Assembly: GCA_050084515.1 (NCBI GenBank)
Contig: CM114271.1
Location: 18,352,001-18,416,000 of the forward strand
Reading direction: 5' to 3'
DNA: 64,000 nt
Source of the DNA: Blasia pusilla
Lineage: Eukaryota
Positions 6,001 through 49,875 of the stretch are shown in pieces (the first letter of the stretch is position 1; each line of letters starts with the position of its first letter). The translations under genes were made by a program, and so were the position numbers. A model generated the notes under the pieces. The model saw only the letters and a program-made list of their open reading frames with translations, was not told where the DNA came from and made no database searches.

Positions 6001-7115
6001 GAAAACTAGTATGACAGGTGGACCAGCCAGTCCTAAATGCTTGACAAGTATCTTCCTTGGTTATCCGATAGTCTCAGACCATGTGCCCATCGGCGGTCAC
6101 AACTATCAGCCTAGGAACATACGGGAGGAACTACTTATCTGTTCCAATAAGGAATGCTAAGATTATTTCTAGGCGTTCTGCATAATGAGCATGACATATA
6201 GGAGGCTTGGCTTCTATGAGATTTGAAGTTGTGACAGACACAAGGAGAACCCCCGAGACATTCATTTTACCAAGACAATAAGACCAGGGAGTGATTTCTC
6301 ACGCCAATGCCCTAGAAGTCTCCAATGCCGAACAAGCATGCGAGATACGACCGATAGAAAACAGCAATTATTTTTCAGAGCAAGAACATTAAAATTTAGA
6401 CGTGTGATGGAGAATGTGTTGGTTTCTTAAACACTTACGAGATGGAGAAATGACAAACAGAAAGGCGCGTGAGAGAATGAAGTTGTGCAATCTCACGGGA
6501 GAGAGAGGAAGCAGACGGACGAGCTGGCACTTGATGAAGCTCCAGCGCCCTTAAAGACCTAAGGTTTCCCAGAGGAGGTAAACTTCCCAGTCCCGTAGGA
6601 CAAATCTTCAAATACAAATGCTCGAGATGCGTCAGGTCTCCCAACTCTTGTGGAAGTGTCCTGACTTCATTGGAGAAAAATTTTAACTTTCGAAGATTTT
6701 TAAAATTCCGAATAGAGGGTGGTAGCACCGTGAAGGTGTTATCAAACACGAACATATTCTTGACTCGTGAAGCGGTATCCTGGTTAGCGTGTGTGAGAGA
6801 CGAAAGCGTGCAGCCACTGGGAGAGACATCAATGACGTCTTCTTCCTCGGATCGTTCGGGTGCCCTCAAATCTGCTCGGGCTCTATCCGCATCCCCAGAA
6901 ATTGAATCTTCCTCTTCTTGTGTCGTTGCGTCGACAGCTTCTGTCAACTTGCTCTCGAGACATTTTCGAGGGTCCATGATGAAACCGTTTTTCTTGGTAT
7001 CTTCCCCGGACCCTTGCTGGATTTCGATTTCTGCACCGGGCGTTCGCTCTGATCCAGGGTGGTGCATACCCTGTAAGCCTTCTCGATCAATTCTTAAACC
7101 AACCATACTTCGCAT
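1..7115 (-). CDS. LRR + EDR1-like domain + Raf-type Ser/Thr protein kinase (At1g04210-like); 3' end runs off the window
   Basis: Exons with GT-AG boundaries and consistent phases: 7115-6439, 5517-5253, 5111-4931, 4839-3903, 3717-3312, 3179-2998, 2522-2360, 2008-1772, 1317-958, 558-457, 252-<1. LRRs ([15 protein letters not shown]), EDR1-like motifs ([24 protein letters not shown]) and kinase motifs ([34 protein letters not shown]) are present. No stop codon before base 1. Confidence 0.92.
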
Positions 7116-13489: not shown

Positions 13490-15424
13490 AGGAGACGCAT
13501 TCGCACATATTGAATCCATTTTAGTGGCATATTGAGTATAGTATGTTGGGTTTAGAAGGAATGCTTACTTAGAGAGAGATGAGGGGAAGGCATTCATAGT
13601 GGCATATGCAAGCCGCTTAAACAACATTTCGGAGGCAAAGCTAGTACAATTCCTATGAAAGGGAGTTCTTAGTTACAATATGGGCAATGTCCCATTTTAG
13701 ATGTTCTTTCTTCGATAACCCTTTCATGGTCATCATTAATCATGAGCCACTCAAATGGTGGATGGAGTTTGACAACCTTGTAGGGAAGCTTGCGAGATGG
13801 GCACTCTTATTGCAAAAGTACAATTTGCAGGTTTTCCATTGCCTCACACATTTGAATCAAGATGCATACACATAAAGCCATAACCCATGTCCGAGCAAGG
13901 ATCATGATATTGAAGCACCATAGTATGGTGAGAGCGATGGGGAGATAGTGTCGAGCTAGCATGCATCTGCCTTTTTATGTCTTTTGGTTATATTCGGTCA
14001 GGAGAAGGCATCCACTTCGAGAGTGAGGTTGGATGTTGATCCGGATGCTATGAGGAGTTGAAAGGGAGTCAAGATATCCATGATGATGAGATGGTTTTGA
14101 AGTACCTCCATATAGACATTATAGCAAGCATGATGGGTGCTAAAGAGCAAGATTGAGCCCTATAATGAACCAAGAGGTTTAGGTGGGAGGGAATGCATGT
14201 GCTTCGAGTTTGGGAGGATAGACGAGTGTGGATGTTGCCTCGCATCCATCGTAGAAACCAAGAGTTGTGAGACATGGTCACAAGGAGTTGGGTAATTTTG
14301 GAATCAAGCGTATGTATAGCTTGCTTCAAATTTAGTAATGGTGGCATGGTATGCATATTGACATTCAAAGATTGTAGCAAGATGCATATATGTGATGGAG
14401 AGCGAGCATCGTTCCATGCTCCGACACCACACTTGAGTCCTTTGCCAATCATGGGATTAGGGTATCTATGGAGTTTTAGAAATTGGAAGGCCTTTATTAT
14501 TAATGGGGCAATACGTATTGGTCATTGGGGAGCAGTTTTCCAAATTGATTGAGTTGGTAGTGTTTCTAGATAGATCGAGTGAGGATAACTTTCAAGCCTA
14601 GTATGATCAAATGTTGATAGATTGTCATACTACTTCTTAAGATCATCTATAGATAGATGGTTTAGCATAGAAAGTTGTGCAGATGGTGAAGAGAAGATTG
14701 TAAAAGTATGGGCTCTAAAGAGAACACTTCTGAGATTGAGACCTATAATTGTTATGATTGGGTATGGATTATTGCTTCAATTGACAAGTTTCCTTGGCAT
14801 TATTTTCACCATATTTCTTGCTCTATGGGAGGGAGCCAAATTTATTGACATCAATTCAATTTAATGTAGCCAAGGTTCTTGACCTCAACAAACTAGATGT
14901 ATGGATGCAAACATGTTCTCAACAACCTTGACACTTTTAAAAAGTCACGCATATGGCATTTGAGAACTTGGCTATCGCTTGGCATCGCGATACTCTGAGG
15001 TATGCGATTGTGCGTGAAGGAGGCTATTGACAAGAGATTTGGAAATTCCATCTTGATAATTATGTATATCTATATCAAAAATACCAACAAGATTGGGTGT
15101 GATGGCGGGACATACTATTTTGCAAGTGCAAGAGGTTATACCTTCAAGAGTACTTGATTCAAAGAGTTGTAATATTACCGTTTGGAAGATCATATGCATA
15201 AGTGTGCGTCATATCAGCTTCCAAAGGTTGATGGTAGTATTGATCCAAGCTTAGCAATTATTCTTATAGGTTTGAGATGTATGTTGTGTGGGTATGCCAA
15301 GGGAGCAATCTCGATGCTAGTGTGTGATGGATATTCTCAAGGATGGCATATGTCATGTTTGATGCCGCCTCTTGACTTGGTTCCTCATGAATATTGGCTA
15401 TGTCCCAAATGTACAGAAGTGTGA
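13490..15424 (+). mobile_element. older, heavily degenerate Ty3/gypsy pol fragment (RNase H-integrase-PHD) of the same lineage as the 16.2-27.6 kb element
   Basis: SHFRCSFFDNPF...GKLARWALLLQKY (13687) aligns with AHFRCYLFGNPF...GKLAKWALLLHEY (24752 ORF). The terminal LRCMLCG...MLVCDGYSQGWHMSCL...WLCPKC (15182-15424) aligns with the PHD at about 26590-26727. Confidence 0.85.
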
Positions 15425-16238: not shown

Positions 16239-17983
16239 TGTCACATCTGAGTAGCCGATAGGCTGAGATCTATCGTGGATAGGGCGTTGTCGTATAGTAA
16301 ATCAACCAGTGTGTAAACTCTTTCGTCATTAAGTGTTAGATAGAGTTTCATTAGTATTAAATAAATTGGCTTAGAAAAAGGAGATTCTTATGTTTAAACC
16401 TCTTTATGGTGCCTCTTTTATGCGGGCCCAACTTTAGGAAAAGAAGGTAATAAATAAAAGATGACTTTATAAAAGTAAAGTAGTTGCTTTAATGAAAAAC
16501 AAAAGTAGTCTTGGTTGGTGGCTAGGTTAGTTGGGGTAATTTGGAAAATATCATGTGGGTAAAAGAGGATATTTTGGAAGAGATAAGAGGAAATCTACTT
16601 GTGTCAAAATGTGATTGGCTAAGCCTTGAGAGGAAGCCATGTGGCACAAGATAAGATAAGCTCTATTTCGTACTCTTGTGGATCCCTTGTGAGTATATAA
16701 AGAGGAGGGACCTTCAAGGGTTCATCACCTTCTATTCCATATCTTGAGTCTCTCGTGTCTCTCTTGAGTGTATGGCTTTGGGATTTCTTGCTCTTCCAAT
16801 GAGAGTGGATCACCCCTCTTGGGAGAGTAACTTGACTATGGTCATTTCTTTGAGAGATTTCTAGAGTGTGGTGTGTGTGTGTGTGGGGATGAGAGGTTTG
16901 TCACCGTAGAGGAGTTTAGTCAAACTAAAATAGCGGAAGTTTTGGCTTGTTACTTCCCCAATGAGAGTGGATTACCCCTCTTGGGAGAATAACTCCGCCA
17001 AAACCCATTCTTGAGGAGAGTAGAGAATGTGTGTCAAGCATGGATAGGGGTGGAGCACGAGCTATGCCCGACTTTCCTTTCCTCAATCCTTACCATGTCA
17101 ACGTACTCTTTGTAGATAGGCACTGGTTCACTCGCTATTTAGTTTATCACTTTGGGGAGGCGTTCATGAACCAGGTCATGCAATCTCCAACTCCGGTGAT
17201 TCTTCCTATCGTCACATATGGAAGGACATGGGATTGTACTTTGTATGTCCTTATATAGCGATCCATGGATGTCAATAGGCCTGGTCAAGTAGGGTTTAAC
17301 ACTAGTTGTGCTATCTTCCTCGTGTACAAACGTAAAATAGTTTATAGGGATTTTATTTACGAATTTCGGGGTCCGATGTTACGAAGAAGTGATCGCCTAG
17401 GCACTTCCATTTGTGATACCTGTCGTGAGAGAATGGAGAGTGTACATCATAATTTTGTATTGAAAAAGGAGAACTTATTAGAGAGTTCACCTTGCATCGA
17501 CCGCAGCTAGAAGGCCCGCCCTTGCTCGAAGAAAGATTCTCGACACGACAGCGTAGGAGCCAGCGGACTATCTTGAGTGTAACTTTGTGCCACAATGTCA
17601 GATGTTGAGGATAGGTCCATTGTGTCAGGAACGTCGTTTATGACAACTTTCATGTTGAGGTCTTTTAGAGCCGGGTGACTTGTTGACTAGGTCACCCGCC
17701 CCAGTAACCTGTCTTGCCTTGAGTTACCAAGGGGAGGGCTATTTTTAGGGGAAGAGCCTTTTGGCTCTTCCCAACCCTATATAAGAGAGGAAGATGGATT
17801 TCCTAAGCCATCTTTCTCATGTTGGGCCGTTGGAGCACCTCCCTTGTATGTGTGTGAGCTAGGACTAGGGTGCTAGTGTCCGGATTCCTTGATAGCACAG
17901 GGTGGACGAGGCTGGATATGCCGATGTAGATTGAAGAGTGGAGTTTTAGGCCGGGTGTGCCGTTTTTACTACTCTTTATTACA
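16239..17983 (+). repeat. 5' LTR (repeat A1), interrupted by a solo LTR at 16288-17550
   Basis: 16239-16287 plus 17555-17983 match 26947-27425 and the reverse complement of 29866-30349. TG...CA ends; TATATAA at 17778-17784. Confidence 0.88.
16288..17550. mobile_element. solo LTR of a different family inserted in A1
   Basis: TGTCGT...ACGACA terminal inverted repeat flanked by a 4-bp TSD GCGT (16284-16287 and 17551-17554). Removing it restores the LTR sequence seen at 26947. Internal TATATAA about 16695; no coding motifs seen. Confidence 0.85.
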
Positions 17984-17994
17984 TGAGAAAGATG
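17984..17994 (+). promoter_or_regulatory. self-priming (Tf1-type) primer binding site
   Basis: ACATGAGAAAGATG (17981-17994) is the exact reverse complement of CATCTTTCTCATGT (17809-17822), which begins about 30 nt downstream of the LTR TATA box. There is no TGG-initiated tRNA PBS here. Confidence 0.75.
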
Positions 17995-20900
17995 TGAGGG
18001 GGCTGGTGGGAATTCGTTGTTTGCAGGTAGGCAAGCGAGTTGCCTCGGTTGGGAAGCCCTTGGAGACGTGTGTGTGAAGTTTTGTGTGTCATTTTTCTGT
18101 TCAGAAGGCCGTGGGCGGAAGCGCTGTCCGTTTTTCTCAGATTTTGCTGGTGCGTATTGATGGGGGACAACAGTAGGGTGTAGCGCAGGTCGTGTCGGCA
18201 GGAGTAACGTTGTCTTATAGCTCGTGGAATGTCGGGAGTACCTAGGGAGAAGAGTTAGAGCTTGTAGCCGCCAGGGGGTTGTCAAGTAAAGGGCGGCTAG
18301 GTCGCATAGGGTTAGGTCACGCAACTGTTAGGGATAGGGCACTGTGCATGGGAAGGAAGGCGTAGGAGGTAGCTAGGTCGGGACGAGTAAAGCTGGCACA
18401 GGTGGACCACGTGCAGAGGGACGGGCGTCACACGCTCCGAGGATGCAAGGAAGCAGGGCCGCAGCCGCATAGGGCTACGTGCCCTCAACGCGCCACGTAG
18501 GCCCAAGGCCGCGGTAGAGAAGGGAGAGTCGGGACTCGGGAGCAAGGAGCTCCAAGAAGCCGGGCAGCGTGCCCGAACGGGGTCTGAAGGAGTAAGGGCG
18601 GGCTCATAGGGAGCCGCATCGCGCAAGCCAAGGTGGGAGCAAGGGCTGACCGCATAAGGCGGCGTGCCCGGAGCTCCAAGGACACAAGAGCTTGCATAGG
18701 GCCACTTGCCCTAGAGTGAGACTGCATATGGCACATCCCCGGGGCTAGTCGAAGCAAAAGAAAGCACGCAGGATAAGGTCCGGGTCCCTGGGAGGACAGA
18801 AGTTGGGAGTAGCAGATTCGAAGGAAGGAAGGAGCCCGGAGCTCTAGGAACAAAGGAGGTACGGGAGGAGCCATTATGGCTCCTAGATAGCGGGGGTAGG
18901 GGCCATTATGGGTCCAACATAGCTGGAAGGTAGTTAGGGGAGGGATGACCGCGTGAGGAGCCGGGCACCTCCATAGCGCAACATGCCCAAAGGAGAGTCG
19001 GACGGAGGTTGGGGATGGACGGAACCTTCGAAGGAAAGAAGGAGGCAGTTGGTAGTAGCCATAGGGAAAAAGAGAGGTAAGGCACAACAGCTGGAAGCCA
19101 GGAGGTCCAAGGAAGTTGGAGGGTTAAGAGAGGGAGAGCGAGCCGTATAGGAGCGCGGGCCAAGGCCAAAAGGGGTTGACACGCGTGCATGGTAGCCATG
19201 CTAACTACATAGAGACTAGATATGGTTGATGGCATATATGGTTGAGCCGCTTACTAGGTGGAAGTTTGGACGTAGTTGATTTGGGTAACATGGTTCGGGT
19301 CATGAGGTTGTGAGTCACCACGTGATTTGATGGTACTTTTTTGACTAGTGGTGAGATTGTGATACCTGTCAAGATTTTCGACGGAGTGGTAGTGATGGAG
19401 ACACACGTGTTGATGCCGACGAGTAGTCCGCATCTATTGACGGGAGGATCGACGTGTTGGTCGAGGAGAGTGTTGTGTTGCGGAGATTGTCATATCATGT
19501 GGAGGAGTGCATGTTGACGGTGCAGCAGGTTGGAGGGCGTGATCAGGTTACCCATTCGAGTCCCTTTTCCCGCACTTGTCGTGTGTGATTGAGAGTGCTG
19601 GGTATCGGGTAGTAGCTAGTGCTAGGTGGGTGCAGTGATGGTGACGAGTGTAGATTCTTTTCATGTATAGTATGTTGGTGGATATACGGTGGTTGCCGAG
19701 TAGGGGTCGCGTGTATGAACCGAGAGAGTGTCGCTAGTTTAGGTGAGTCAGTTGGGAGGCTCATGGTGAGCCCGAGTGTTGAGCATGCGTGAGGCCGGGT
19801 ATGTCATCACGGGATTGATGTTAGCATAGGTGAGCTAGTGAGGCGTGTGGGAGACTCTTGGTGAGTCTGAGTGCTTGAGCGGGTGAGACAAGGTTTGTCA
19901 TCACGGCATTCTTCCAGGGTTCGGAAGAACGGGGTAGTGCGAGCAGTAGTAGTGATGTGACACGGAGTGGAGTGAGATACCGAGGGGTTACCAATGAGGA
20001 GCTACCTCGACATCCATCCGTGGTTGGATCGTCATCACTCGACACTGGGTCTGGTGACGAGATCCGCATGCGAGACGATAGTACTTGGCGGGAGATGGGC
20101 GACATGGGCCATCGGGGCATGCGTCGTTTTCGGTGCAAGTGGGCACCATCGACTTAGATGATTTTATCCAGGAGTTCGACACTTGGTGCGACTTCGAGAT
20201 ACGGACCGACACGGTTCAACCCTTTCATGGCATGGAAGGGTTGTTCCAAAGACTTGGAGGGTCCCTCGATGGATGACTACATGGAGTTTCGAGCACGATA
20301 TTCAGTAGCGATCGATGCTTGGAGGATGTATTGGGCTCCAGGGTATGTGTCCACTAGTGGTCGCGAGGCATATGATGGGATTGTGAGAGGAGAGAGACCC
20401 ACACCATCAGCCCCGAGACTAGATGGAGAGGAGGTGAGACAGGCGATGTGGCATCTAGCCATCTAGCCCACAGCGAGCACCAGTACCAGGGGAGCGGGCC
20501 AGTGTGCCTAGAGAGCAGGGCGGGTACCGTGAGCCTATGAGGCAACGACCCGCACCTACATATGCTGCCCAACAGGGACCGACGTGATCTTTTTGGACGT
20601 GTGGAGGGGCCCATAGGCAGAGAGACTGCCCACAGTATGGGAGAGGACCACCAGCGCCTCCGATTGCTCAGGAGCCACAAAGGATGGCCCCACCACAACA
20701 CTAATCTGACCATTGCCACAGATATGGTCACACTAGGGATAGATGTTTTGACCTTCGCCGAGGGGCACGTCCAGAGGTAGGCCGAGGGCCTGGGGGCGGT
20801 CGTCCTGCATGAGGTCGGAGAGTTCTTCCTGGACGTGGTGGTAGAGGACCACCACCAGCCAAAGGAGATGGAGGAGGAGCACCAGAGCTGGCACTTCTCT

Positions 20901-22390
20901 CACGCATCGATTAGTTGGAGCAGAGGATTGCTACCATGACGATGATGCAGCTTAGGGAAGGCACGGAGCTACGAGCAGCTAGTGTGACTCCAACTTCTAC
21001 CTCTTACCCTGACCCGGGTGAGGATCTCGCCAGTATAGGATTTATGTGTAGTGCAGCCCAGGTTGAGACAGCTGCAGTGGTGACTCGGGGTGCTGCGAGA
21101 GGCACCGAGCCATCGAGAGGTGGAGTTGAGATTGACCCACCAGAGGGGACCGATGGGCAGCAAGCCAGGGTTCCACAATCGTTCACATTGTTGGAGGCAC
21201 TACACACACCATCGATGGTGCCTCGACGACCAGCGGTGCCCATAGTTCAGGCACCTACGTCGACGTCACGAGGAGTTGGAGTGAAAACTCCTATGCCGGC
21301 TCGAGTGGAGTGAGTGTCGACCATAGTGTTGGAGGTGGCCACCAGAGTGAGTCAGACTCCACTATTTTCCGCCATAGAGTTGGCGACGTTGGGAGTTGGA
21401 CTAGCTGAGGTGTTCCGGTTGGCCGGCACATTGTGTGAGCGTGGAGAGATGACTGCTTCTTGTTCAAAGGTAGTTGAGGAGGTGGTGGACTTGCCCTTAG
21501 AGCCGGTGCTTGGGACGTTCCCCATAGAGTCATGGCATGCGGCGGCGGCGAAGTTGGTAGATATGCCAGCTCGACCGGCCATAGAGCGAGCAGTGGTGAC
21601 ACCTGGAGTAGTGTTACTGGATAACCAAGCTGGAGTATTTCGCTTGGTTAGTCCGATGGGGAAAGTATACCACCCGCAGCGCATCCTACTTGATTTGGGA
21701 GCGCAACCCTTGATGTTAGGGAAGGCGGCGTGTTTAGCTTTGGGGTTATGGAAGGCCGACATTGAGCCTTGTCCCTTCGATCTGACCTTGATTGGGCGTA
21801 TCACCCCTCGGTATATGACTCGACAAGAGATTGTTGTCGAGTCCAGCCAGAGCATGCGGGATAGTGCTATGGTGCGACACGTGCGATTACGACACCGATT
21901 GAGTAAATGCGATATGTTGGTGGGGAGTGCAGTGTTATATCCCCTAGGATTCATCCTTGACTTCTGGGAGGAGACCGTTGCTTATCGGCCAGGATGGTGG
22001 TCAGGTGACTGCCGGATGAGTTAGTTACCCGTGCAGTTTGCGGGACGAGGTGGTTGATCATGAGGCGAGTCTATGACCACGTTGGCAGCTTTCACAGGTA
22101 GTATTAGCTGGCCAGGAGAGTTGTTGGAGGGGAACGCACATGCGGAGGATGTCCTAGTAGCGGATAGTCCCACGGAGAGACATGCCATGGCGGGTGTCTC
22201 TTCCCATGTTGGCAAGGCCTCTTCACCATTGTGGGGTACGACTCGAGAGCTACAGAGGAGTGTCGAAGACCTCTTGAGGCAAGCGTGAAGTCATGTTTTT
22301 ATCCCATAGCCGCGAGAGTCATGTGGCGATCGGGCTCTTGGAGTGGAGACGATGACCCCACTAGATACCACACCTGTTGTGTGGCAGTGC

Positions 22391-23345
22391 CCAGAGGAGG
22401 GTGTTAGGGTGTTAGATCTCTTGGGAGGGATTAGCACCGGATTGGTTGCACTATTGCAGGCAGGCATACGGGTGCATTAGTACCTTTATGTGGAGAGAGA
22501 TGAGATTGCGCGGCGAGTATCATTACGTCACGTGGCGAGATTGGTCCAGAGGTATCCTGAGTTGTTGTCGATATCTGCAGTACGGGGATATCAGCATACG
22601 CTACCCGCCGACATCTCTTTGGTGGGGGCGCAGGATGTGGATAGAGTTGGCACCATTCATTTGGTTATTGTTGGATGGCCATGTCAGGGTCATTCATCAA
22701 CTGGCCGAGGATTTGGATTGTAGGATCCGAGGTCAAGGATGTTTTGGGAGATGCTGCGAGTATTACGACACTTGCAGGAGAGTCAGATATGTTCTCCAGC
22801 GTACATTTTGGAGAACGTGCCGTTGTTGGGAGACACTCGTGCATGTGTGATGACGAGTGTACATCAGGTGAGGTCCTGGTTGGGACCTGCTGTGTTGTTA
22901 GATGCAGCGAGAGTTGGGTCACGTGCCCATCGTCCACGACTGTGATGGACAAACCTGATACCATCAGAGGTACTGAGTCGAGCATAGGGTGGAGTCCAGA
23001 GAGCACCACATCTCACAGTGGATGCTATTTTGGGCTCAGGGTGTCGATCTCAGGTGGTGACACGGGATGATAGACCACCGTTGGCCATGGCCAATAGGGT
23101 GGGGGAGTTGAGGGCAGCCTTATCTACGTTGGTGAGCTTCCCAGCATCCCATGCCTTCCGTCACGGATGGTCAGGCATGCTTTGGGATGAGGTGACCGGA
23201 GCATTGGAGGAGCCTACAGCAGATGAGCGCGAGCGCGCCATGGGGTTCGCTACCGGTACTACGGCGGTGCAAGGGATGACTGAGGCATCCCGGAGACAGG
23301 TATTGGGGCAGGTGATGGACCTTAACTCTCTCACATGGATAGTCA
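22391..23345 (+). pseudogene. DNMT3-like C5 cytosine DNA methyltransferase domain inside the retrotransposon polyprotein frame (disrupted)
   Basis: All motifs are in one frame. Motif I VRVLDLLGGISTG (22403); IV LVIVGWPCQGHS (PC at 22679-22684); VI YILENV; VIII DAARVGSRAHRPRL*WTNL; IX-X ERERAMGF...SRRQVLGQVMDL. In-frame stops at 22478, 22721, 22943 and 22985. Confidence 0.88.
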
Positions 23346-26300
23346 ACCTAGGTATGGTTGAGCAGAGACGGATGCGAGTGTCATCCATGCCGTCACGTCC
23401 ATGAGTTGGACCATTGCCTACAGGGTCTATACATGCATTGGCTGGGGGCGAGACGAGGAGAGATAGGCACCCATGGACTTCCTGGGACATCCTTTGAGCA
23501 GAGAGTGCGAAGGCGGATAGAGTAGCACATGTTAATTTTTCGGATGTGGAGCATGGTGTAGGAGGTCAGAGTGGAGTGGCTAGTTGCGGAGGTGGCTAGA
23601 GTTGCTACATAGCAACAAAAGCCGGAGGTTGCGTCCTCTCCAATTGAGGTCATGATGGAGACTTGGCAGCCTGTGATAGGTCTCAAGTTGATAGGAGGAG
23701 AGCGACGGCGAGTTCATAGGTTTTTGAGAGGGCATGTCAGTTTTTTTGCCTTCAGTATGAGAGACTTGGGTACGTTGAAGGGTCCCGGGATACGGATTGA
23801 GTTGGCTAGTGATACGCCGATCTTTCGTCGACCCTACAGGTATTATGATATGGAGCGAGCCTTGATTCAGAGCAGGAGTCAAGACTTGTTGGAGGCAGGA
23901 CTTGTGGAGTTATCACATGGAGAGTATGCATCTGCCACAGTCATGCTGGCGAAGAAGGATATGTATGGCAATTGGACGGATAGGCGGATGTGTGGAGATT
24001 ACCGTCCTATCAACCAACAGACGAGGTCAGATCGGTATGCCATGCCTACTCCTGAGTAGATCTTTGATGCGGTAGGGCATGCAAAGATCTTCAGTACTTT
24101 AGATCTCCGTGCTGGCTATCATCAACTTCCTATCAGGTTGGAGGACAGGGAGAAGACAACATTTTGTGGGATAGATCGGTTTGGGAGAGATTGCTTGTAT
24201 CAGTGGTGGTTCTTACCATTTGGGTTGAAGAACGCGCGTGCAGAGTTTCAGAGAGTGATGGATAGGATTCTGGATGGCTTGGATTTTGTACGATGTTACA
24301 TAGATGATATTCTTATCTTCAGTTCCACGGTTGAGGAGCATGAGCGACACTTGGAGGAGGTGTTTCGGCGATTGCAGTTACATGGACTGAAGTTACATCC
24401 AGGCAAGTGCAGATTCTTTCAGGAGCAGATTGAGTACTTGGGACACACCATATACACGAGTGGGTTAGGCGTTCAGAAGACGAAGGTAGAGGCTATTGCG
24501 TAGATTCCAAGCCCTATAGATTTGAGTCGAGTCCGAGCATTTCTTGGACTGGCAAACTTCTATCGACAATATGTCAAGGGTTTTAGTGCGATCGCAAAGT
24601 CTTTGACCTTGTTGACGAGACTTGATCAGGTTTGGTTGTGGGGAGATGATCGGGAGCAAGCATTTCAGAGCTCAGGACAAAGTTGGCGTCCTCACCCATT
24701 TTCTGAGAGACCGTTAGGGGTCGCCCATTCCAGTTACATACGGATTGGAGCATGTTGGGTCTAGGAGCAGTGCTTACTCAGAGGGATGACGAGGAGAGGG
24801 AGTTCGTTGTGGCTTACGCGAGCCGATCGAACAACATTGCAGAGGCAAAGTACAACTCCTACGAAGGAGAGTGCTTGGATGCAGTGTGGGCCGTGGCACA
24901 TTTTAGGTGCTATTTATTCGGCAACCCTTTCACACTTATCATTGATCATCAGCCGTTGAGGTGGTTGTTGGAGTCCGACAAGCTTACGGGCAAGCTTGCC
25001 AAGTGGGCTCTATTACTACATGAGTATGAGTTTGAGGTGGTTCATAGGCTAGGTCGGCTGAACCAGGATGCGGATGGGTTGAGTCGTAACCCATGTCCGA
25101 GTCCGAGAGACGACACAGGAGCTCGATGGCACGGAGAGAGTGATGAGGAGATGGTGCCCGGTTGGCATGCATCTGCCTATCTTTGTTGGTTGACTATGGC
25201 AGGTCAGCCACATGTGATGACTCCAGTGGTGGGGTTGGATGATGAGTCTTTGGATCCGGAGGTTAGTGAGGAGGCGACAGGTGGTCGTGATATCCATGAC
25301 GACGTGGAGGTTGTGGAGTTCTTGCGCACTGGCATCATTGCGAGTACAGTGAGTGCTAGGGAGCGGGATCGGATCCTACAGAGAGCCAAGAGGTTCAGGT
25401 GGGAGGGGACTCACATTTTGCGGGTATGTGGAGATGGTAGGATACGAGTGGTACCTCATCCTTCCCAACGAGCACGTGTAGTGCGACATGCCCATGAGGA
25501 GTTGGGACATTTCGGAGTAAAGCGTACTTACAGCTTACTCTAGGTTCAGTATTGGTGGCGCGGCATGCATACTAGGGTAAAGCAGTTTGTGGCCAGATGT
25601 ATGGTATGTGACAGAGTGTGAGCATCCTTCAATGCTCCCACTCCGCAGTTACATCCTTTGCCGATTATGGGTTTAGGTTATCGGTGGAGTTTAAACTTTG
25701 CAGGACCTTTGCCATTGACAGGGCGTCATCATAGGTACGTGTTGGTCATGGTGGAGCATTTCTCCAAGTGGATAGAGTTGGTGGCACTACCAGACAAGGC
25801 AAGCGAGGGAACAACTTATGCGTTTCTAGATCGTATGCTTAGTCACTTTGGTGCACCGGCGGAGGTGTTGACTGACCAGGGTACCGAGTTAGGGGAGAGT
25901 TTCAGGCCTTGTGTGATCAGGCGCTCATAGATCACCGCACCACGTCCACAGATCATTGTGAGGCGGATGGGTTGGCGGAGAGAGTGGTACATACGGTGAA
26001 GAGAGGATTACGCAAGTATGGCTTGCAGCGGGGACAGTTGAGGGAGTGGGACCTACAGTTGCCATGGTTGGCTATGGGTTATCGCTTTAGTCGGCAGGCA
26101 TCCTTGGCGTCATTTTCACCGTACTTTTTGCTCTTTGGGAGAGAGCCAGATTTACTTGCAGTGATTCGACGTGACATGGCGGAGGTGTTAGATCTTGATG
26201 ATCCAGATGTATGGATACAAGCATGTTCTCAAAGGGCAGAAGTTTTTCGTAGAGTTATGCCCATGGCCTTTGAGAACTTAGCTATTGCCCAGCATAGAGA

Positions 26301-26589
26301 TACATTAAGGTACGTGACCATTCGTGGAGGAGGTTATCATCCAAGGATTAGGAGGTTTCATCCTAGAGTTTACGTGTATTTACAGCAGGCGGCACCCACG
26401 ACGCTAGATGTCACTGCAGGGCGCACGATCCTACGTATGCGCGAGGTATTACCGACCGGAGTCCTCATGTTGGAGGGATGGGATGGTATGGTTTGGACGG
26501 ATCATGTGCGCAATTGTGCGCCATGTCATCTTCCGAACGTAGATGGGACGGTGGATCCGAGCTTGGCAATGGTACCTGCAGGCTTGAGG

Positions 26590-26727
26590 TGTATGTTGTG
26601 CGGATCTCCGAGGGGTGCAACCACCATGTTGGTATGTGATGGTTGTTCTCGAGGGTGGCATATGTCATGTCTGACCCCCCCTCTTGATATGGTTTCCACG
26701 GGACGATGGATGTGTCCGAGATGTGTA
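26590..26727 (+). other. PHD finger (C4HC3) at the integrase C-terminus
   Basis: CMLCGSPRGATTMLVCDGCSRGWHMSCLTPPLDMVSTGRWMCPRC at the end of ORF 25909..26730. Confidence 0.9.
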
Positions 26728-26806
26728 TAGGGTAGTAGGTCATGTGACAGAGATGTGATATTTTCTATCTGGAGTTGGGGGGATCCAACTGCTAGCTAGG
26801 GGGGCG

Positions 26807-27563
26807 GTTGTGTGATCTCCATGTATATGTATGAGTTGATTTTTGTACATGTGTGGATCGACCCGTGTGTGGGAAAGATCGGTGTTGTGTGGTGTAGATG
26901 TGACGAGCGATGTATGTTGTGTAGCGATATGTATGCGCACGACAACTGTCACATCTGAGTAGTCGATAGGCCGAGATCTATCATGGATAGGGCGTAGGAG
27001 CCAGCGGACTATCTTGAGTGTAACTTTGTCCCACTATGTCGGATGAGGTTGAGATATGTCCATTGTGTCAGGAACGTCGTTTCTCACAACTTTCATGTTT
27101 AGGTCTTTTACAACCGGGTGACTTGTTGACCAGGTCACCCGCCCCTGGTAACCTGTGCGCGCAGGTTACCAAGGGGAGGGCTATTTTTAGGGGAATAGCC
27201 TTTTGGCTCTTCCCAACCCTACATAAGAGAGGAAGATGGCTTTCCTAAGCCATCTTTCTCATGTTGGGCCGTTGGAGCACCTCCCTTGTATGTGTGTGAG
27301 CTAGGACTAGGGTGCTAGCATCCGGATTCCTTGATAGCACAGGGTGGACGAGGCTCGATATGCCAATATAGATTGAGGAGTGGAGTTTTAGGCCGGGTGT
27401 GCCGTTTTTACTACTCTTTATTTTTGTTGTGTGATCTCCATGTATATGTATGAGTTGATTTTTGTACATGTGTGGATCGACCCGTGTGTGGGGAAGATCG
27501 GTGTTGTGTGGTGTAGATGTGACCAGCGATGTATGTTGTGTAGCGATATGTATGCGCACGACA
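26807..27563 (+). repeat. 3' terminal repeat block B-A'-B'
   Basis: G-rich PPT-like tract (AGGGGGG, 26798-26804), then B 26807-26944, a 2-nt spacer AC, A' 26947-27425 (LTR copy lacking the final ACA), and B' 27426-27563. B and B' are each 138 bp with 2 mismatches seen. Confidence 0.88.
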
Positions 27564-28200
27564 TGGTCTTTATTGACGATTTCTCCCGGTATACTAATGT
27601 TTACCTCCTCCATTACAAATCCGAAGCTTTTTCCCGTTTCACTCAATTTGTGGCTAAATAGAGACACAACATCAACCTCGATGCATTCAGACATTGCAAT
27701 CTGACAATGGTGGGAAATATAAGTCATCTTCTTTCTTAGACTTCTACCATTGTCGGGAATCTCCAAGTAGCTCACTATTCCCCACACACCACAACAAAAT
27801 CGTGTTTCAAAATGTAAGAACATAACTCTTGCTAATTCTATACGTTCTTTGCTTTTCCATTCTGTTCTTCCCAAGACTTATTGGGGTGAAGCGTTGGTCA
27901 TTGCTAATTATTTGCAAAATCGTCTTCCAAGCAAAGCATTGCCACTTTCCAAAACACCATATGAGTTATGGTTTAATCCTAAACCTGTGTTATCTCATCT
28001 TCGTATTTTTGGAAGTCCTCCATTTGCTAAAATTAATGATCCTCATTCAAAGCTGCATTTTCGCACTGAGGAATGCATTTTCCTTGGTTACAGTGACCAA
28101 AGCAAAGCCCTGCGTCTCGAGAGGCTGAAAGAAAAAACTATCATTCTCTTGTGATGCTGTAGTTCTTGAAGATCAGACTGCTCAGACCACTCCATCGTTC
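27564..28200 (+). mobile_element. Ty1/copia integrase core fragment (3' half of the copia at 30350-32409, now inverted)
   Basis: VFIDDFSRYT...SDNGG...PHTPQQN...YWGEALVIANYLQNRLP...TPYELWF...HLRIFGS. Confidence 0.88.
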
Positions 28201-28227
28201 GCTTCTTCTGATGCAGAAGATATGGCT

Positions 28228-30349
28228 ATCCCATCATATGCCTCGCGACCACTAGTGGACACATACCCTGGAGCCCAATACATCCTCCAGGCATCGATCT
28301 CTACTGAATATAGTGATCGAAACTCCATGTAGTCATCCATCAGAGGATCCTCCAAGTGCTGGAACAACCCCTTCCATGCCATGAAAGGGTTGAACCGTGT
28401 CGGGGTCCGTATCTCTTGGAAGTTGCACCATGTGTCAAACTCCTGGATAAAATCATCTAAGTCGATGATGCCCACTGCACCCGAGAAACGACGCATGCCC
28501 CGATGGCCCATGTCGTCCATCTCCTGCCAAGTACTCGTTTGTCTCTGCGTGATCTCGTCACGGACCGGTGTCGATGATGACGATCCGATCCACGGATGGA
28601 TGTCGAGGAGCTCCTCTCAGTGGTAACCCCTCGGTATCTCACTCCACTCCGTGTCACACCACTACTATCGCCGCAGACTACCCCGTTCTTCCGAACCCTG
28701 GAAGAACGCCGTGATGACAAACCCTGTCTCACCCGCTCAAGCACTCAGACTCACCGAGAGTCTCCCACACGCCTCACTAGCTCACCTATGCTAACATCAA
28801 TCCCGTGATGACATACCCGACCTCACGCACACTCAACACTCGGGCTCACCATGAGCATCCCAACTGACTCACCTAACCAAGCGACACTCTCTCGGGCCAT
28901 ACGCGCGATCCCTACTCGGCAACCGCCGTATATCCACCAACATGCTACACATGAAAAGAATCTACACTCGTCACCATCACTGCACCCATCTAGCACCAGC
29001 TACTACCCAATACCCAGCACTCTCAATCACACACGACAAGTGCGGGAAAAGGGACTCGAATGGGTAACCTGATTACGCCCTCCAACCTGCTGCACCGTCA
29101 ACATGCACTCCTCCACATGATATGACAATCTCCGCAACACAACACTCTCCTCGACCAACACATTGATCCTCCCGTCAAGAGATGCAGACAACCCGTCGGC
29201 ATCATGCACACTGCCCCTCCATCGTCAACTCTCGCAACGCCCTGTCGCGCCCCAAAACATCATGTGGCGCCCCAAAACATCATGTCGCGCAAACCTCTCT
29301 GTCGATCCCCATGCGCGGCATGTAACGTGACTCACCCTGGTCGGCTCCCAATCATGTCCGGAAAATCTCAACTCACGTTCGCCGGACTAACCTCATCCGT
29401 CCTACCAACCACGACCACTCCAATCCTACCACGCGTTGGGGGAGGGCGCGTTTAGGGTCCGCGCCCGTCGCCGCCCGTCTCGCCGCTCGTCGGCTCTCGT
29501 CCGTGGCCCCTCGCCCCCTTGCCCTCGCCCATCGCCGCCGCGCCCTAACCCTAGACCGGCCGCGACCTAGCTAGCCATTTTTACTTAACAGCCCCCCGAC
29601 GGCTGCAAGACCCAAACCTTCTTTTCTTCTCTCTCTCGACAACCTCACTCGCGTTCACCCGCCGCCCACTCCGTACTACACTCTGCCGCTGTCCCCAATC
29701 CCTGTGCACCAACAAATTCTGAGAAAAACGGACAGCGCTTCCGCCCACGGCCTTCCGAACAGAAAAATGAAAAACACCCGCAACACACGCGTCACTTGGG
29801 GACCAAGGCAACTCGCTTGCCTACCTGCAAACAACGAATTCCCACCAGCCCTCACATCTTTCTCATGTAAAAATAAAGAGTAGTAAAAACGGCACACTCG
29901 ACCTAAAACTCCACTCCTCAATCTACATCGGCATATCCAGCCTCGTCCACCCTGTGCTATCAAGGAATCCGGACGCTAGCACCCTAGTCCTAGCTCACAC
30001 ACATATAAGGAAGGTGCTCCAACGGCCCAACATGAGAAAGATGGCTTAGGAAAGCCATCTTCCTCTCTTATATAGGGTTGGGAAGAGCCAAAAGGCTCTT
30101 CCCCTATAAATAGCCCTCCCCTTGGTAAACTGGCGCAAGACAAAGTTACGAGGGGGCGGGTGACCTGGTCAACAAGTCACCCGACTGTAAAAGACCTCAA
30201 CATGAAAGTTGTCAGAAACGATGTTCCTGACACAATGGACCTATCCTCAACATTTGACACTGTGGGACAAAGTTACACTCAAGATAGTCCGCTGGCTCCT
30301 ACGCCCTATCCACGATAGATCTCGGCCTATCGGCTACTCATGTGTGACA
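28228..30349 (-). mobile_element. second copy of the DNMT/PHD Ty3 family: 5' LTR (A3), leader and gag N-terminus only
   Basis: The reverse complement of 29866-30349 is the LTR. 28228-29180 matches 19430-20381 (gag DLDDFIQEFDTWC...AWRMYWAPGY). The self-priming complementarity is conserved (29855-29868 vs 30030-30043). Confidence 0.88.
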
Positions 30350-32409
30350 ATCATGAAAAAACGAAAATCCAAATGAGTAGGGGGGGAGAAATAGGCCCGC
30401 AAATATTTCTATGAATTAATTCTAAAACATTGAGAGCTCTTTACACTAGAGTAGTGTTAGAAAAAGGTTTGTGAGTCTGCTTGCCATGTAGGTTGTCTCG
30501 ACATGAAGAAATCTGAGAGGGATTATGCTTTGGAAGACCGCAAACCATTTGCTGATTTTGAATTTGAGAAACACGAGCGGCGCTGATGTGACCCAAACGG
30601 TGATGCCACAGATCAGCGATCGTGGGAAGAATCGCAATGGCAGATGTAATGGAAGAGAATCGAGAGGGTGGAAGGACAACTTCTCCGAGTTTGTACAAAT
30701 CATTGATTAAATAATATGTTGTGATGATCTGGTTTGTAGAATCGCGAAGTATGCACTTTCTGTCATGAATCAAGGCAGATCCTCCTGAAGTGTCTAGTTG
30801 CATGATTGAGAAAAGATTTTTCTTCAAGCTTGGTATAAATAGAACATTACGAAGAATATATTGAATACCATTAGTCAAAAGGATCTCAAGTCCAGATCCT
30901 TTTATCTCCAGACTAGAACTATCACCTAGGAAAACATACGAAGATTTTTCATATGGAGTGTAATTGGAAAAGTAATCACTAGAGAAGGCCATATGATGAG
31001 TAGCACCGGTATCAAGATACTATGTGTTATCTTGAATATTTGAAGCCGAAGTTGAATAGGCAACGGTAAAGAAGAGATGAGACGTAAATTTGGCTTTTGG
31101 AGCAAAAAATCTGCACTGAATTTGCTGATCTGCAAGACGTTTTCGGCAATCTTTAATATGATACCCTTGCAAATTGCAGTAGAAACCCTTCATTTTCTTA
31201 TAAGTATTCTGCTGATTGGAGGATGAAGCCTGCCAATCAACTTGATGATTGGACGATTCGCCATGTGCAATTGTCATAGAAGCAAGAACAAATCATGATT
31301 TGAAAGGACCAAAGCCTTTCTGAGGAGCTTTGCCTCCACTGTAACCTCTAAATGAGCCGCCTTGCCTCAAATTTCTGAATTTGGACTTCGATTGAAAAGT
31401 GGCTGAACCTCGTCCAACTAAAAGAGCCGAGGACGGTTCAACAGTCTGCGTCTTCATCATTTTCTCCTCCCTAAGAAGGAAAGTGATCACAAATTGCAAA
31501 GTAAGGTTACTCTGACCTTGCAATGAGGTCAATAAATTGCGTAACTGTTGGGCATTGATCGCATCAATGCAAGATACTGATTTTCATCAGTAGTCACCGA
31601 TCCAGCAGCGTGGAGTTGATCAATCAATGCCCTAAATTGATGGACATGTTTGGTAACACTATCGCCTTCTTTCATCTTAAGAGTCTACAATTCATCTTGC
31701 AGATACATTTTTGTGACAGTGTCCTGGGCTTGGTATAAAGAATCTAATTTTGTCCAGCTTGCGCTGCAGTCGTAGCGGAACTGATATGATGAACTTGCAA
31801 ATTGTCTAAACGGTTCGCTATGAAAGATAAGGCAATTCGGTTGAAAATCTCCCATTCGTGGACATTCCCCGCCCGGTGGCAGGAGCGGTAGCCGCTACTG
31901 GCTTTAGAGTTGTACCTTCTACGATGCCTACTAAATCTTTGGCATCGAGGTACAATCTCATGCATAATCGCTAGATGTAGAAATAGGTCCCGTCAAATTT
32001 CGGGATGTCGTCAATCTTGAGGAACATGTTAGAATTCACCATCGTGAATTGATGAAAATGATAGAAAACGGATCAAGGACTGTGAATTCGTAAGAATCGA
32101 AAGTCTGCATCCACCAAGCAATCAGAACGAGAAAGGCGTTTGAGTAGAAGGCGTCCCCTCTACTCTAGGAATGTTGAAGCGTCCCTCAAATTCCAATCCT
32201 TTTTTGAAAACGTAAGAGTAGTGACTAGCGACCAGGCTCTGATACCATGTGAGAATTGCAGAATGAATTGAAAAATGCCTTTGTACTCTCTGTGTTCTCT
32301 ATATGTATTGATAGATTGAAAGCCGATACATAAATAGTAAAGTCTGCGCTAAACTAAGAGCCGTAATCAAAAGACGTGACGATAACTGTGTCACTTCAGA
32401 AATATCTCA
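30350..32409 (-). mobile_element. Ty1/copia element 5' half (LTR, iMet PBS, gag, protease, GAG-pre-integrase), decayed
   Basis: PBS TGGTATCAGAGC (reverse complement of 32236-32247). Gag ATG at 32042 (IPKFDGT), knuckle remnant YCNLQGYHIKDC, protease LDTGATHHM about 31020, LWHHRLGH, and LELIH..ICGP up to 30350. LTR about 32248-32409; its outer end is uncertain. Confidence 0.85.
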
Positions 32410-47557: not shown

Positions 47558-49875
47558 TCTATTCGGAATCCATAATTTGGAAATAGAGGAGGCTTGGATA
47601 TGATAGAGAATGAGACCATAAAGGGAATGTAGATGGTGGAACACTCCATCCTCAAAAGGGAGGAGGGACAAAATCCCACTCCTTGGACAGAGGAAAAGAG
47701 AGGGGAGGTATAGAGTGCCTTTCGTGAAGGGCTAAAGAGCATTCCCTTGACCTAATCCTTAAAATGTGCCCCAAAAAAACTAATATTCATAATATAAATA
47801 GCCAACTTGACAAATGTTCTAATGTCTAAAAATCCGTGTTAAGTTAAAAAAAAACAAGTTGGGCGAATAACTCTCAAATCTGATAGGATGCGTTTCAAAA
47901 TCAAAAGAAAAAATATGACCATAACCAAATATTTACATATGTCCGGTGTCTCGAAGGCATGGCATCTTTAAAGGGCACTCTTCAATAATAATATAAATTT
48001 TTACCCATATTATCATAGAAGCGATGTGATCCTGATTTATTTATTTATTTTCCCGGGAAGTTTGTGACACGTCAAACATCGGAAATGAAAACGGATTATT
48101 TCGGAGATTCGAATTCATACGTTTAACAGTTTGCATTTCACCCAACTTGCTCGCGGAAAGGGAACTTGTCCGGCTCGATACCACACTTCACATTTAACGC
48201 GCCATAGAAAGGCGGGACGAGCACCCGGAGACGTAAACGCGTTCCCGGCGAAACAATGACCGGATAACAGCGTTTGTGGATTAGTTACCACGCGTCGAGT
48301 ATGCATTGGACAGTAGGGTGTCCATCCCTCAGTCTCTATTAATGCAGATCGAGATTCTCTTTGTTCTCCCCGTACCTTTAGGCCACGTGGTAGAACTATT
48401 GTTAATGGATGGCGTTATCGTCCCAATCCAAGGTAATAGTAGCAAAGCTGGAGTACGGATTGGTTGCAATCACTTGGTTGTGAAGACCCGGCCCGCGATA
48501 GACGAGAAGCAGTCAATAATGAAGAGAGCGCGGGTCGGGAAGATGGGTGAATGTGCTCGTGAGGCCGGGTTTTCATCGGAGTACACTCGGACCAGCGCGT
48601 TACATGCGACACCTGTCACGCTGGAGCATAGGTAGGAAAAGTGCTGACCGGCAGATCCAAACCAAGTGAGTGGCACGTGTGGATGAAAATGGCATCTACG
48701 GCAAGAAAATGTGGCATTGACGAGGAGTGCCATTCCTACCGGGTACCGTCGGATGCGCGATCGCACGTCTCCAGGGCTTTTCTTTAACGGGTTCCATCCA
48801 TGACGAAGGACGAACGACGAATTACCGTCCGGCTGGGTTCTCCGTGATTGGGAACGCGTCCCGGCGGTACGCTGTGAAGGTCCGGCCGACGAGCGATGCT
48901 CTCCATCCTGTTCCTCCCTCCCAACAGTCTCTCCTCTCGCTTCTCCGACAGGCACTTTCTACGCCGAGTTTTTGCTGGTCTCGGGAGCCCTCCTCGCTTT
49001 CCTCAAATCGGTCGCGGGTGGATCTTGCGTAGCGTTCTGTTGCGGAGTGAAATCGGTCCCTGTGACCCAGTGAGGGCGTTGTCAGGCAGTGGACTATGTG
49101 GAGAATTCGTGGAGTTCGAACGGATTGAGACGTCTACCGGGTGCTGGTCGGACGAGTTGGTTTCGAGCGGTATTTGCGAGGAACAGGACGGGGTGGGGTG
49201 CTTTGATTTCTTGTGATTGGAAGCGCGGAGGAGTGCGACGGAGTCCTTTTGAGAATCGGTGATGTGGGTGGGCACTCGGACTTCCGGCGGTGATTAGAAG
49301 TCTATAGAGGTTTAGTTTAGCCAGCCATGGCTTGTTTTGATCTTTCTCGCTGCTGTTTGGGATAGTCGGAACGTGCTTCCCGAGTGGACGGGAAGGCAGG
49401 ACGGTGCTTTTTTCGCAAGGAGACGAGCGCAGTCGGAACCCCAAAGCCAAGAGGTGCTTCACGCAATTGAATTTGTAGCCTCTACTTTAGTCGAGCGGGC
49501 AGGGAGATTGGGAGGAGATTTACCGGAGTGGGGATCGAGAGAGGACGTGGTGGTTGCTATGCAGCTGACAGAATCAGATCGTCGGGTTTACAGAGCGGCC
49601 TGACTTTGGAGGTCTTCAGTCTCAGAAGCGACTCGACCGGGGGAGAAAGCCGCAGAGAAGTGCGACGCAAAGCCAATCCCACTCATTCCGTGAGAAGGAA
49701 TACTTGAGAGGATATAGGAGTGATTCTTTCGCGAACCTGTACAAGTGTTGAGTGATCACGACCGGCGCATATAAGTTGTAGGAGAAGGTGGTGTGACTCG
49801 GAGAACCCTCGGTCGAGGACGAGCGAGTCACGAGCGCAGTAGGAAGTGAAGTATCGAGGAGCTGGTTCGAGGAGG

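Follow-up and report, generated by a model that had tools for sequence, protein, structure and literature searches.

DNA methylation is the main weapon of plants against transposons, and a transposon carrying a DNA-methylating enzyme of its own would be the bearer of its host's anti-transposon weapon. Such a case is raised by a stretch of 64,000 nucleotides from Blasia pusilla (assembly GCA_050084515.1, contig CM114271.1, positions 18,352,001 to 18,416,000; hereafter the window, in which all positions are counted), where the first-pass annotation, made from the letters alone, had placed a Ty3/Gypsy retrotransposon with a cytosine methyltransferase at 20915-26730. Is the methyltransferase a genuine part of the element, to what is it related, and what could it do there? 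The annotated segment very probably holds the coding modules of a defunct Gypsy-DNMT3 retrotransposon copy, which in full extends from 16239 to 27563. Its modules form a single ancestral polyprotein frame, i.e., gag, protease (PR), DNMT3-like cytosine-5 (C5) methyltransferase (DNMT), reverse transcriptase (RT), RNase H (RH), DDE integrase (INT), and PHD finger. The coding modules of the first-pass annotation stood, but the annotation had missed the true ends, the PHD finger, and the frame breaks separating DNMT, RT, RH, and INT.

Coding Modules of the Element

The modules were located as follows; relatives with the order PR-DNMT-RT are referred to as T1 and those with the order RT-RH-DNMT-INT-PHD as T2.

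20082-20914 (+): gag remnant, frameshifted; open reading frames (ORFs) 20082-20276 and 20158-20466 match the Marchantia gag N-terminus at 53-60%
20915-21313 (+): gag-protease spacer, in the PR/DNMT frame; aligns after the CCHC knuckles of relative P0004
21314-22024 (+): aspartic protease region, 28-49% identical to PR of 25/25 T1 proteins
22025-22351 (+): PR-DNMT linker, 28-40% identical to relatives
22352-23404 (+): DNMT3-like C5 methyltransferase domain, PF00145, four internal stops
23613-24503 (+): reverse transcriptase (RVT_1 at 23979-24452, 101.9 bits), in a frame other than that of DNMT
24722-25027 (+): RNase H (RT_RNaseH, 105.8 bits)
25460-25894 (+): integrase zinc-binding domain and DDE core (Integrase_H2C2, 60.9 bits; rve, 39.5 bits)
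25895-26589 (+): integrase C-terminal region, 39-46% identical to T2 proteins and 64-72% to metagenome loci
26590-26727 (+): PHD finger at the integrase C-terminus (domain match 26590-26724; PF00628, 42.9 bits), followed by a natural stop

The pol order PR-RT-RH-INT, with its RVT_1, RT_RNaseH, Integrase_H2C2, and rve matches, assigns the element to Ty3/Gypsy as far as domain content can tell. At the place corresponding to the protease region, relative P0044 matched Asp_protease_2 with an E-value of 2.8e-4 and 22.0 bits, under the 24.3-bit cut-off, and the integrase C-terminal region was 67% identical over 52 residues to the sole T1 protein extending there. With 14 internal in-frame stops and at least three frame changes (between DNMT, RT, RH, and INT) in its pol frames, and with two private insertions, the window copy itself is decayed and inactive.

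The Methyltransferase Domain

The C5 methyltransferase domain occupies 22352-23404 (+), the final 351 codons of the frame 20915-23404. This frame, of 830 codons counted with X at stops, holds protease and methyltransferase together and is interrupted by 10 internal stops but by no frameshift. Within the domain, there are four stops (22478 TAG, 22721 TAG, 22943 TGA, and 22985 TAG). The check with the PF00145 (DNA_methylase) profile proposed by the first-pass annotation gave a match of 31.4 bits (E-value 1.8e-7), above the curated cut-off of 22. The following motifs were read from the translation.

22412-22441 (+): motif I (LDLLGG)
22673-22690 (+): motif IV (GWPCQG)
22811-22819 (+): motif VI (ENV)
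22919-22957 (+): motif VIII, interrupted by a stop in the window copy
23225-23248 (+): motif IX
23291-23320 (+): motif X

In the stop-corrected translation, the motifs run in the unpermuted order I-IV-VI-VIII-IX-X, and the window lineage has the canonical PCQ at motif IV and ENV at motif VI. No PWWP or ADD domain was found by Pfam in the window or in full-length relatives. One DNA run, with the best share of window words, and three RNA runs of the same species label were compared with the window. The leucine in place of phenylalanine in motif I (position 22423) proved to be confined to the window copy, as sister copies have T there (TTT, phenylalanine): 35/36, 26/29, and 34/34 of the first-mate-on-minus RNA reads and 33214/54670 of the DNA depth. 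Hence, the description first given of this domain holds in each respect: a full set of C5 methyltransferase motifs in order, unpermuted unlike those of DRM, in the protease frame and ahead of RT, in a copy that is dead by four domain stops and a motif I substitution.

Relationship to DNMT3

When the window sequence was searched against Protein Data Bank (PDB) chains, the best 29 distinct sequences were all DNMT3A, DNMT3B, or DNMT3C (E-values 4.9e-9 to 4.7e-6), followed by DRM2 (4.8e-4) and M.HaeIII (1.6e-3). The HMMER alignment recovered the likeness to animal DNMT3 in motifs VIII-X that had been pointed out at first pass. A family profile of 17 sequences (alignment A1) again placed DNMT3A/B/C in the top 29 positions (8.5e-25 to 3.7e-19), with weaker matches to 4onj (3.6e-15), M.HhaI (1.3e-11), DRM2 (3.2e-11), and DNMT2 (2.6e-10 to ∼3e-10). 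The entry 4onj, titled just "DNA methyltransferase," is presumably a tobacco DRM. No DNMT1-named chain was present among the 57 PDB matches listed for this profile. For P0205, an intact relative with 69% identity to the window, an AlphaFold model built on a 40-row alignment (A2) had a mean predicted local distance difference test score (pLDDT) of 91.7. Its best Foldseek match was chain 6f57_D from a DNMT3A-DNMT3L-DNA complex (E-value 3.7e-19, target template modeling score 0.84), and all the 32 matches listed were DNMT3A/B/C. The ESM Atlas search returned generic PF00145 clusters only. Judged on solved structures, the closest kin of the window domain is thus DNMT3, ahead of DNMT1, DNMT2, DRM, and bacterial enzymes, and the resemblance to animal DNMT3 claimed at the outset is recovered at the level of sequence, profile, and predicted fold.

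An Inherited Module of the Family

Among longer proteins, 31 matches were obtained; the 25 best were 45-75% identical and included proteins of Calypogeia fissa, Marchantia polymorpha, and Sphagnum fallax. The protease precedes DNMT in all the 25, and six continue into RT, RH, or INT. A search for proteins of similar length (87 matches) added Marchantia paleacea, Riccia sorocarpa, Sphagnum troendelagicum, S. tenellum, and S. jensenii as well as Closterium sp. at 37% identity; no Klebsormidium nitens protein appeared by name among the family protein matches listed. These matches demonstrate the family in at least four named liverwort and four named Sphagnum species besides the window host. Two further proteins, P0223 and P0296, are filed under bacterial metagenome-assembled genomes (Candidatus Obscuribacterales and Minisyncoccia); their contigs, 2.4 and 10.4 kb long, are probably eukaryotic and misbinned.

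A scan of metagenomes with P0206 gave 16 loci, of which L015 and L016 (34% over 62 residues) were excluded from the counts. The order gag-PR-linker-DNMT-RT-RH-INT-PHD was seen, as far as the contig reaches, in 13/13 loci with context, and the 14th is a 3-kb contig with DNMT alone. The contig of L013 bears a second, older copy of identical order on the opposite strand. Natural single ORFs spanning the gag to integrase modules also exist, namely, P0044 (2188 residues) and P0186 (2327 residues), with zf-CCHC, Asp_protease_2 (E-value ∼3e-4, ∼22 bits, under the cut-off), DNA_methylase, RVT_1, RNase H, H2C2, and rve domains. The PF00145 scores of relatives ranged from 35 to 48 bits. The methyltransferase has been inherited within the family as a module situated between protease and RT in every informative relative. 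It is therefore part of the polyprotein, as the first-pass annotation had argued, and not private to this copy.

When 1.84 billion cluster representatives were searched with HMMER, 2756 proteins matched at E-values ≤ 1e-3, 740 at ≤ 1e-10, and 216 at ≤ 1e-30; the best 150 of the 2756 were all family members or fragments of them. Of 379 family proteins, 185 were T2, 52 were T1, and 133 were too short to assign. The T2 order predominates in green algae and metagenomes, and its named members include the Scenedesmus sp. PABB004 "pol" protein KAF8056149 and Monoraphidium neglectum MNEG_11595. FastTree trees of DNMT and RT were built, with no outgroup, from 130 sequences holding both domains, nine of them T1. 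The T1 sequences were monophyletic in both trees (support of 0.998 for DNMT and 0.973 for RT), with T2 forming the other side of the split. The sequence trees fit one old capture of DNMT and a single later relocation inside pol; as they lack an outgroup, there may alternatively have been two captures, one at the base of each group.

Could the methyltransferase nevertheless be a chance passenger, i.e., a host DNMT3 fragment or processed pseudogene lodged in one Gypsy copy? Nested insertions are common, and the window copy has two private ones, which is all that speaks for this idea. DNMT is, however, in frame with the protease over 2.5 kb with no frameshift, it holds the identical position in 25/25 proteins of other species and 13/13 informative loci, and the DNMT and RT trees are concordant. 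A passenger origin is refuted by the domain position shared among sister copies, and we consider it virtually impossible.

Among 278 near-full DNMT domains, the catalytic xC[Q/N] is kept in 254 and EN[V/T/A] in 259. Motif IV reads PCQ in 109 of them and ECQ, an unusual replacement of the conserved proline beside the catalytic cysteine, in 131, mostly T2 (e.g., P0027, P0030, and P0151).

The PHD Finger of the Integrase

The place at the integrase C-terminus where a chromodomain was looked for is taken by the PHD finger. Its pattern is kept in 140/143 T2 proteins with enough tail and in 1/2 T1 proteins as well as in the window and the five metagenome loci reaching that far. The nearest PDB matches (E-values 3.9e-13 to ∼1e-8) were the PHD fingers of CHD4, KMT2D/KMT2C, KDM5A/B, DPF2/DPF3, PHF12, PHF21A, ATXR5, KAT6A, AIRE, and UHRF1. 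Most of these PHD fingers bind the unmodified N-terminus of histone H3 (H3K4me0). Among the 60 PDB matches listed, none was from ING, BPTF, or TAF3, the classical H3K4me3 readers. By analogy, we infer for the integrase PHD finger a role akin to that of the chromovirus chromodomain, and a possible parallel is offered, as a lead, with the ADD domain of host DNMT3, which reads H3K4me0.

Split Direct Repeats and Element Ends

Paired identical flanking long terminal repeats (LTRs), by which Ty3/Gypsy elements are ordinarily recognized, were not found at the element; its repeats are laid out instead as A1-coding-B1-A2-B2, with the ends TGTC...GACA.

16239-16287 (+): repeat A1, first 49 nucleotides (element 5' end, starting with TGTCAC), 94% to 26947-26995
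17551-17983 (+): remainder of repeat A1, 92.6% identical to 26992-27422
26798-26806 (+): purine-rich, polypurine-tract-like sequence abutting B1; CTAGGGGGG, present in L006 and L013 too
26807-26944 (+): repeat B1, 99% identical to 27426-27563
26947-27425 (+): repeat A2; the TGTCAC start occurs also at 30349 (-)
27426-27563 (+): repeat B2, of 138 nucleotides (element 3' end, GACA)

The end and the start of the element are brought to within 1-2 nucleotides of each other at the internal B1-A2 junction. The A-coding-B-A-B layout was observed in all three elements with terminal repeats detected (window, L006, and L013), which have in common the CTAGGGGGG tract before B1, the B1-A2 junction of 1-2 nucleotides, and a conserved B end (…GATATGTAT.CGCAC[GA]ACA); no terminal repeats were detected in L007 and L012. 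Split direct repeats in the order A1...B1-A2-B2 are the layout of PAT/Ngaro/DIRS elements, as given in the accessible text of PMC4157794. Their combination with a DDE integrase suggests a circular or end-joined intermediate, which would be cut at the B-A junction. A 12-nucleotide initiator-tRNA primer-binding motif had five matches in the window against 4.9 expected, none of them within the element. No 5-bp target duplication was found at the two flanks of the + copy itself or at L006 and L013.

B1 and B2 differ at 2/138 positions, and the A repeats are ∼5-7% apart. This gap may stem from gene conversion between the two neighboring B repeats or from an A1 that another copy supplied. A reading of 27426-27563 as copia sequence, with A2 as a truncated LTR, was rejected, as 27426-27563 is the B2 repeat.

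Copies and Transcripts in the Host

In the DNA run, 182412 contigs matched the window stretch. The RNA runs held 1547, 2050, and 2034 matching reads, mostly 90-99% alike and mostly first-mate-on-minus. As few reads (47, 155, and 81 in the three runs) were ≥ 99% alike to the window, the RNA is mostly from sister copies. First-mate-on-minus depth was 0.9-5.8x over the DNMT bins and 9-25x from RT to INT (bins 23421-26066), and the depth in the opposite direction was 0-2.6x. Sister copies are abundant in the host organism and transcribed at a low level, and the family RNA is sense if the usual convention for stranded libraries is assumed.

These numbers bear on the idea that host genes domesticated from such elements encode the long Marchantia, Calypogeia, and Sphagnum proteins, with the window copy as a pseudogene of one such gene. 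The proteins are annotated as genes, and one cluster was auto-named DNA (cytosine-5-)-methyltransferase by UniRef. There are, however, many paralogous and often partial models per genome, gag, PR, RT, and INT accompany DNMT, and the window copy, which lies within a copia integrase, is furnished with terminal repeats and matched by the 182412 same-organism contigs noted above. Domestication is hence very improbable.

Selective Constraint on the Domain

The proportion of synonymous differences (pS) between the window and the metagenome loci was 0.72-0.77, indicating saturated synonymous sites. The proportion of non-synonymous differences (pN) was 0.255 for DNMT, as compared to 0.178 for RT, 0.168 for RH, 0.155 for INT, 0.186 for the INT C-terminus with PHD, 0.314 for gag, 0.359 for PR, and 0.421 for the linker. 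By this ranking at saturated pS, DNMT has been kept, less tightly than RT and more tightly than protease and gag. Among recent metagenome copies, the median omega was 0.60 for DNMT, 0.30 for RT, 0.81 for PR, and 0.89 for the linker.

Proposed Mechanism and Its Rivals

In putative active sister copies, DNMT would be translated within Gag-Pol and travel with RT and integrase. It would then methylate the new cDNA or the DNA of the insertion site, and the PHD finger of the integrase, nearest to readers of unmodified H3 tails, would tether integration to chromatin without H3K4 methylation, so that a new copy would arrive already marked like resident silent DNA. Taken jointly, a DNMT acting on cDNA or insertion-site DNA and a PHD finger tethering integration are put forward tentatively, as possible rather than probable.

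Several observations weigh against a working enzyme in such a role. Recent metagenome copies have a pN/pS of 0.63-0.66 for DNMT vs. 0.34 for RT, and the DNMT domain is broken in 14/14 metagenome copies (1-9 stops) and in the window copy. As all the 14 copies have domain stops, the recent-copy omega values are inflated by neutral decay. The Gypsy-borne DNMT3 of K. nitens has a Ka/Ks below 0.2 (PMC5890265, cited here and below for its accessible parts), and the constraint seen in the recent copies is much weaker than that. When the K. nitens domain was assayed in yeast, no methylation resulted, an outcome its authors call inconclusive (PMC5890265), and no Gypsy-borne DNMT3 is known to be enzymatically active. 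The label "DNMT3-like" is based on comparison with solved structures. The histone specificity of the PHD finger is deduced from the identity of the solved PHD fingers nearest to it and from what these bind, and the sense orientation of the family RNA hinges on the assumed library convention.

Some of these points would suit a domain that is conserved and no longer methylates DNA, acting on an RNA target or lending structure or DNA binding to the polyprotein or particle. The inactivity of the K. nitens domain in yeast fits this, as do the weaker constraint on DNMT than on RT in recent copies and the ECQ replacing PCQ in 131/278 domains, mostly of the algal architecture. RNA methylation has been raised by de Mendoza et al., for the LINE class and not for Gypsy (PMC5890265). 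On the other side, the catalytic cysteine, ENV, and the motif VIII arginines are kept over hundreds of clusters, the window lineage has the canonical PCQ and ENV, the predicted fold best matches DNA-bound DNMT3A/B, and the related SymbioDIRS-Dnmt3 domains methylate CG in yeast (PMC5890265). Loss of DNA methylation by the domain is accordingly judged quite unlikely.

An active enzyme could also work for restraint rather than camouflage, by marking the new copy for silencing (self-limitation) or by acting in trans on host DNA; restraint is one of the options proposed by de Mendoza et al. (PMC5890265). Relative to the family majority, the window copy has A/T for G/C at 124 places and the reverse at 46 (one run), so that decay is mainly C-to-T and G-to-A, as expected of methylated DNA. 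Together with a CpG observed/expected ratio (o/e) of 0.67-0.72 over the family copy, this decay fits methylated, silenced DNA. Yet the same decay is equally expected from host silencing, the whole window is similar (CpG o/e 0.68), and the family is still abundant and transcribed. The present data do not separate restraint from camouflage, and restraint is regarded as somewhat unlikely.

Returning to an enzyme that marks new copies, a wider reading may be framed, in which Gypsy-DNMT3-PHD is an old retroelement lineage of the whole green line (216 clusters at E-values ≤ 1e-30, two pol architectures) that arrived in land plants and is still running in liverworts and peat mosses. It would unite a DDE integrase on DIRS-style split repeats, a working de novo methyltransferase, and a reader of unmethylated H3K4, features not known together. 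As a whole, this reading is unlikely to be correct. If it were, each new copy would be written, already methylated, into silent chromatin, and such elements could have seeded DNMT3 genes in their hosts or exchanged them with the hosts.

Nested Insertions and Flanking Sequences

Further features of the copy and its surroundings were located as follows.

16288-17550 (no strand assigned): private 1.26-kb insertion in repeat A1; same-organism DNA contigs join 16286/7 to 17563/4
17984-20081 (+): leader or 5' untranslated region, which contains a private, low-copy stretch at ∼18184-19410
28228-30349 (-): inverted partial family copy (A repeat, leader, and gag start), 90-92% to 17551-18183 and 19411-20381

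The 1.26-kb insertion is a high-copy sequence with no Pfam domain; its RNA depth is 15-213x vs. 0.2-25x over the leader and coding bins, and reads stop sharply at 16288. Where the leader of the window copy has 1228 nucleotides, the inverted copy has 472. The leader stretch 18184-19410, which is missing from the inverted copy, has 57% GC and a strong G-over-C skew, and the DNA word depth is 0-43 in bins 18129-19262 vs. 10^3-10^5 elsewhere. Tandem Repeats Finder reported two small arrays only in the window, both inside the inverted copy.

The segments 27564-28215 (+) and 30350-31019 (-) are consecutive parts of one Ty1/copia pol. The minus-strand flank carries Pol_BBD and gag_pre-integrase, then ...ICGPISPPLLIWIFVF, and the plus-strand flank reads MVFIDDFSRY..., then an SH3_retrovirus domain. 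Pfam gave no match to the 33-residue copia piece that follows B2, and the 5-mers flanking the insertion in copia are ATGAT and ATGGT. As the copia flanks are consecutive, one original insertion is bounded by the + copy at its 3' end and by the inverted fragment at its 5' end, which implies a later inversion or recombination between two copies. A second related Gypsy fragment at 13513-15412 (+), older and heavily broken, comprises RNase H, integrase, and PHD with 39-63% amino acid identity to the main copy. As it is 5'-truncated, its prior DNMT content cannot be told.

Host-type genes lie in the flanks at 3267-3803 (-), 6435-7115 (-), and 49843-50739 (+), with an EDR1/CTR1-type domain, leucine-rich repeats, and an NF-YB-type histone fold. 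The 48-56 kb region has a CpG o/e of 0.97, unlike the repeat-rich remainder. With these plant-type genes in the flanks and liverworts as the nearest named relatives of the element, the land-plant-type genome that had been recognized from the letters alone is supported.

Comparison with Known Systems

DNMT3-bearing retrotransposons were described in 2018 in K. nitens and Symbiodinium (de Mendoza et al., PMC5890265), in agreement with what the first-pass annotation had said of dinoflagellates and Klebsormidium. According to the accessible text of Sarre et al. (2025) and of a 2026 preprint, "streptophytes (Gypsy-DNMT3)" are mentioned with land plants unnamed, and in that of Morozov et al. (2019), land plants such as tracheophytes are said to lack such transposons. 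In the literature searched, no main-text account of a bryophyte retrotransposon bearing a DNMT was found; the supplementary DNMT trees of PMC5890265 and PMC12344493 may include some. To the known Gypsy-DNMT3 kind, the present analysis adds the land-plant range, the PHD finger, the split direct repeats, and a second architecture. As Marchantia polymorpha is transformable and has methylome data, the role of a transposon-borne DNMT3 becomes testable in a land plant, and the PHD finger and split direct repeats offer further handles on targeting and replication mode.

KnitGypsy-Dnmt3 shares with the window family a Gypsy-type pol, an unpermuted DNMT3-related domain in the Pol ORF, the absence of introns, silencing in the host, and repeats in the order A-coding-B-A-B, the last given by the Fig. 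4c legend (PMC5890265). It differs in its host, a charophyte vs. a land plant, and a PHD finger is mentioned nowhere in the accessible text of PMC5890265. The DIRS-order PAT/Ngaro elements and SymbioDIRS-Dnmt3 have split direct repeats as well, and SymbioDIRS also has DNMT3 in Pol. These elements use a tyrosine recombinase, whereas the integrase of the window family is of the DDE type and includes an H2C2 zinc domain. The T2 elements of green algae resemble the window element in DNMT (35-40%), RT (33-40%), RH and INT (∼50%), and the C-terminal PHD; their DNMT, however, lies between RNase H and integrase, and motif IV is mostly ECQ.

Chromoviruses similarly have a chromatin-reader module fused to the integrase C-terminus, but in the window family, the module is a PHD finger, not a chromodomain, and the repeats are other than plain LTRs. 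Plant DRM is DNMT3-related and, as DRM2, a weaker PDB match to the window family; its motifs are circularly permuted (VI-X before I-V), whereas those of the window family run from I to X. The catalytic domain of animal DNMT3A/3B/3C is the best sequence, profile, and fold match, with unpermuted motifs and a short VIII-IX interval. In contrast to it, the window family, ∼20-24% identical, is without PWWP and ADD domains and embedded in a retrotransposon polyprotein.

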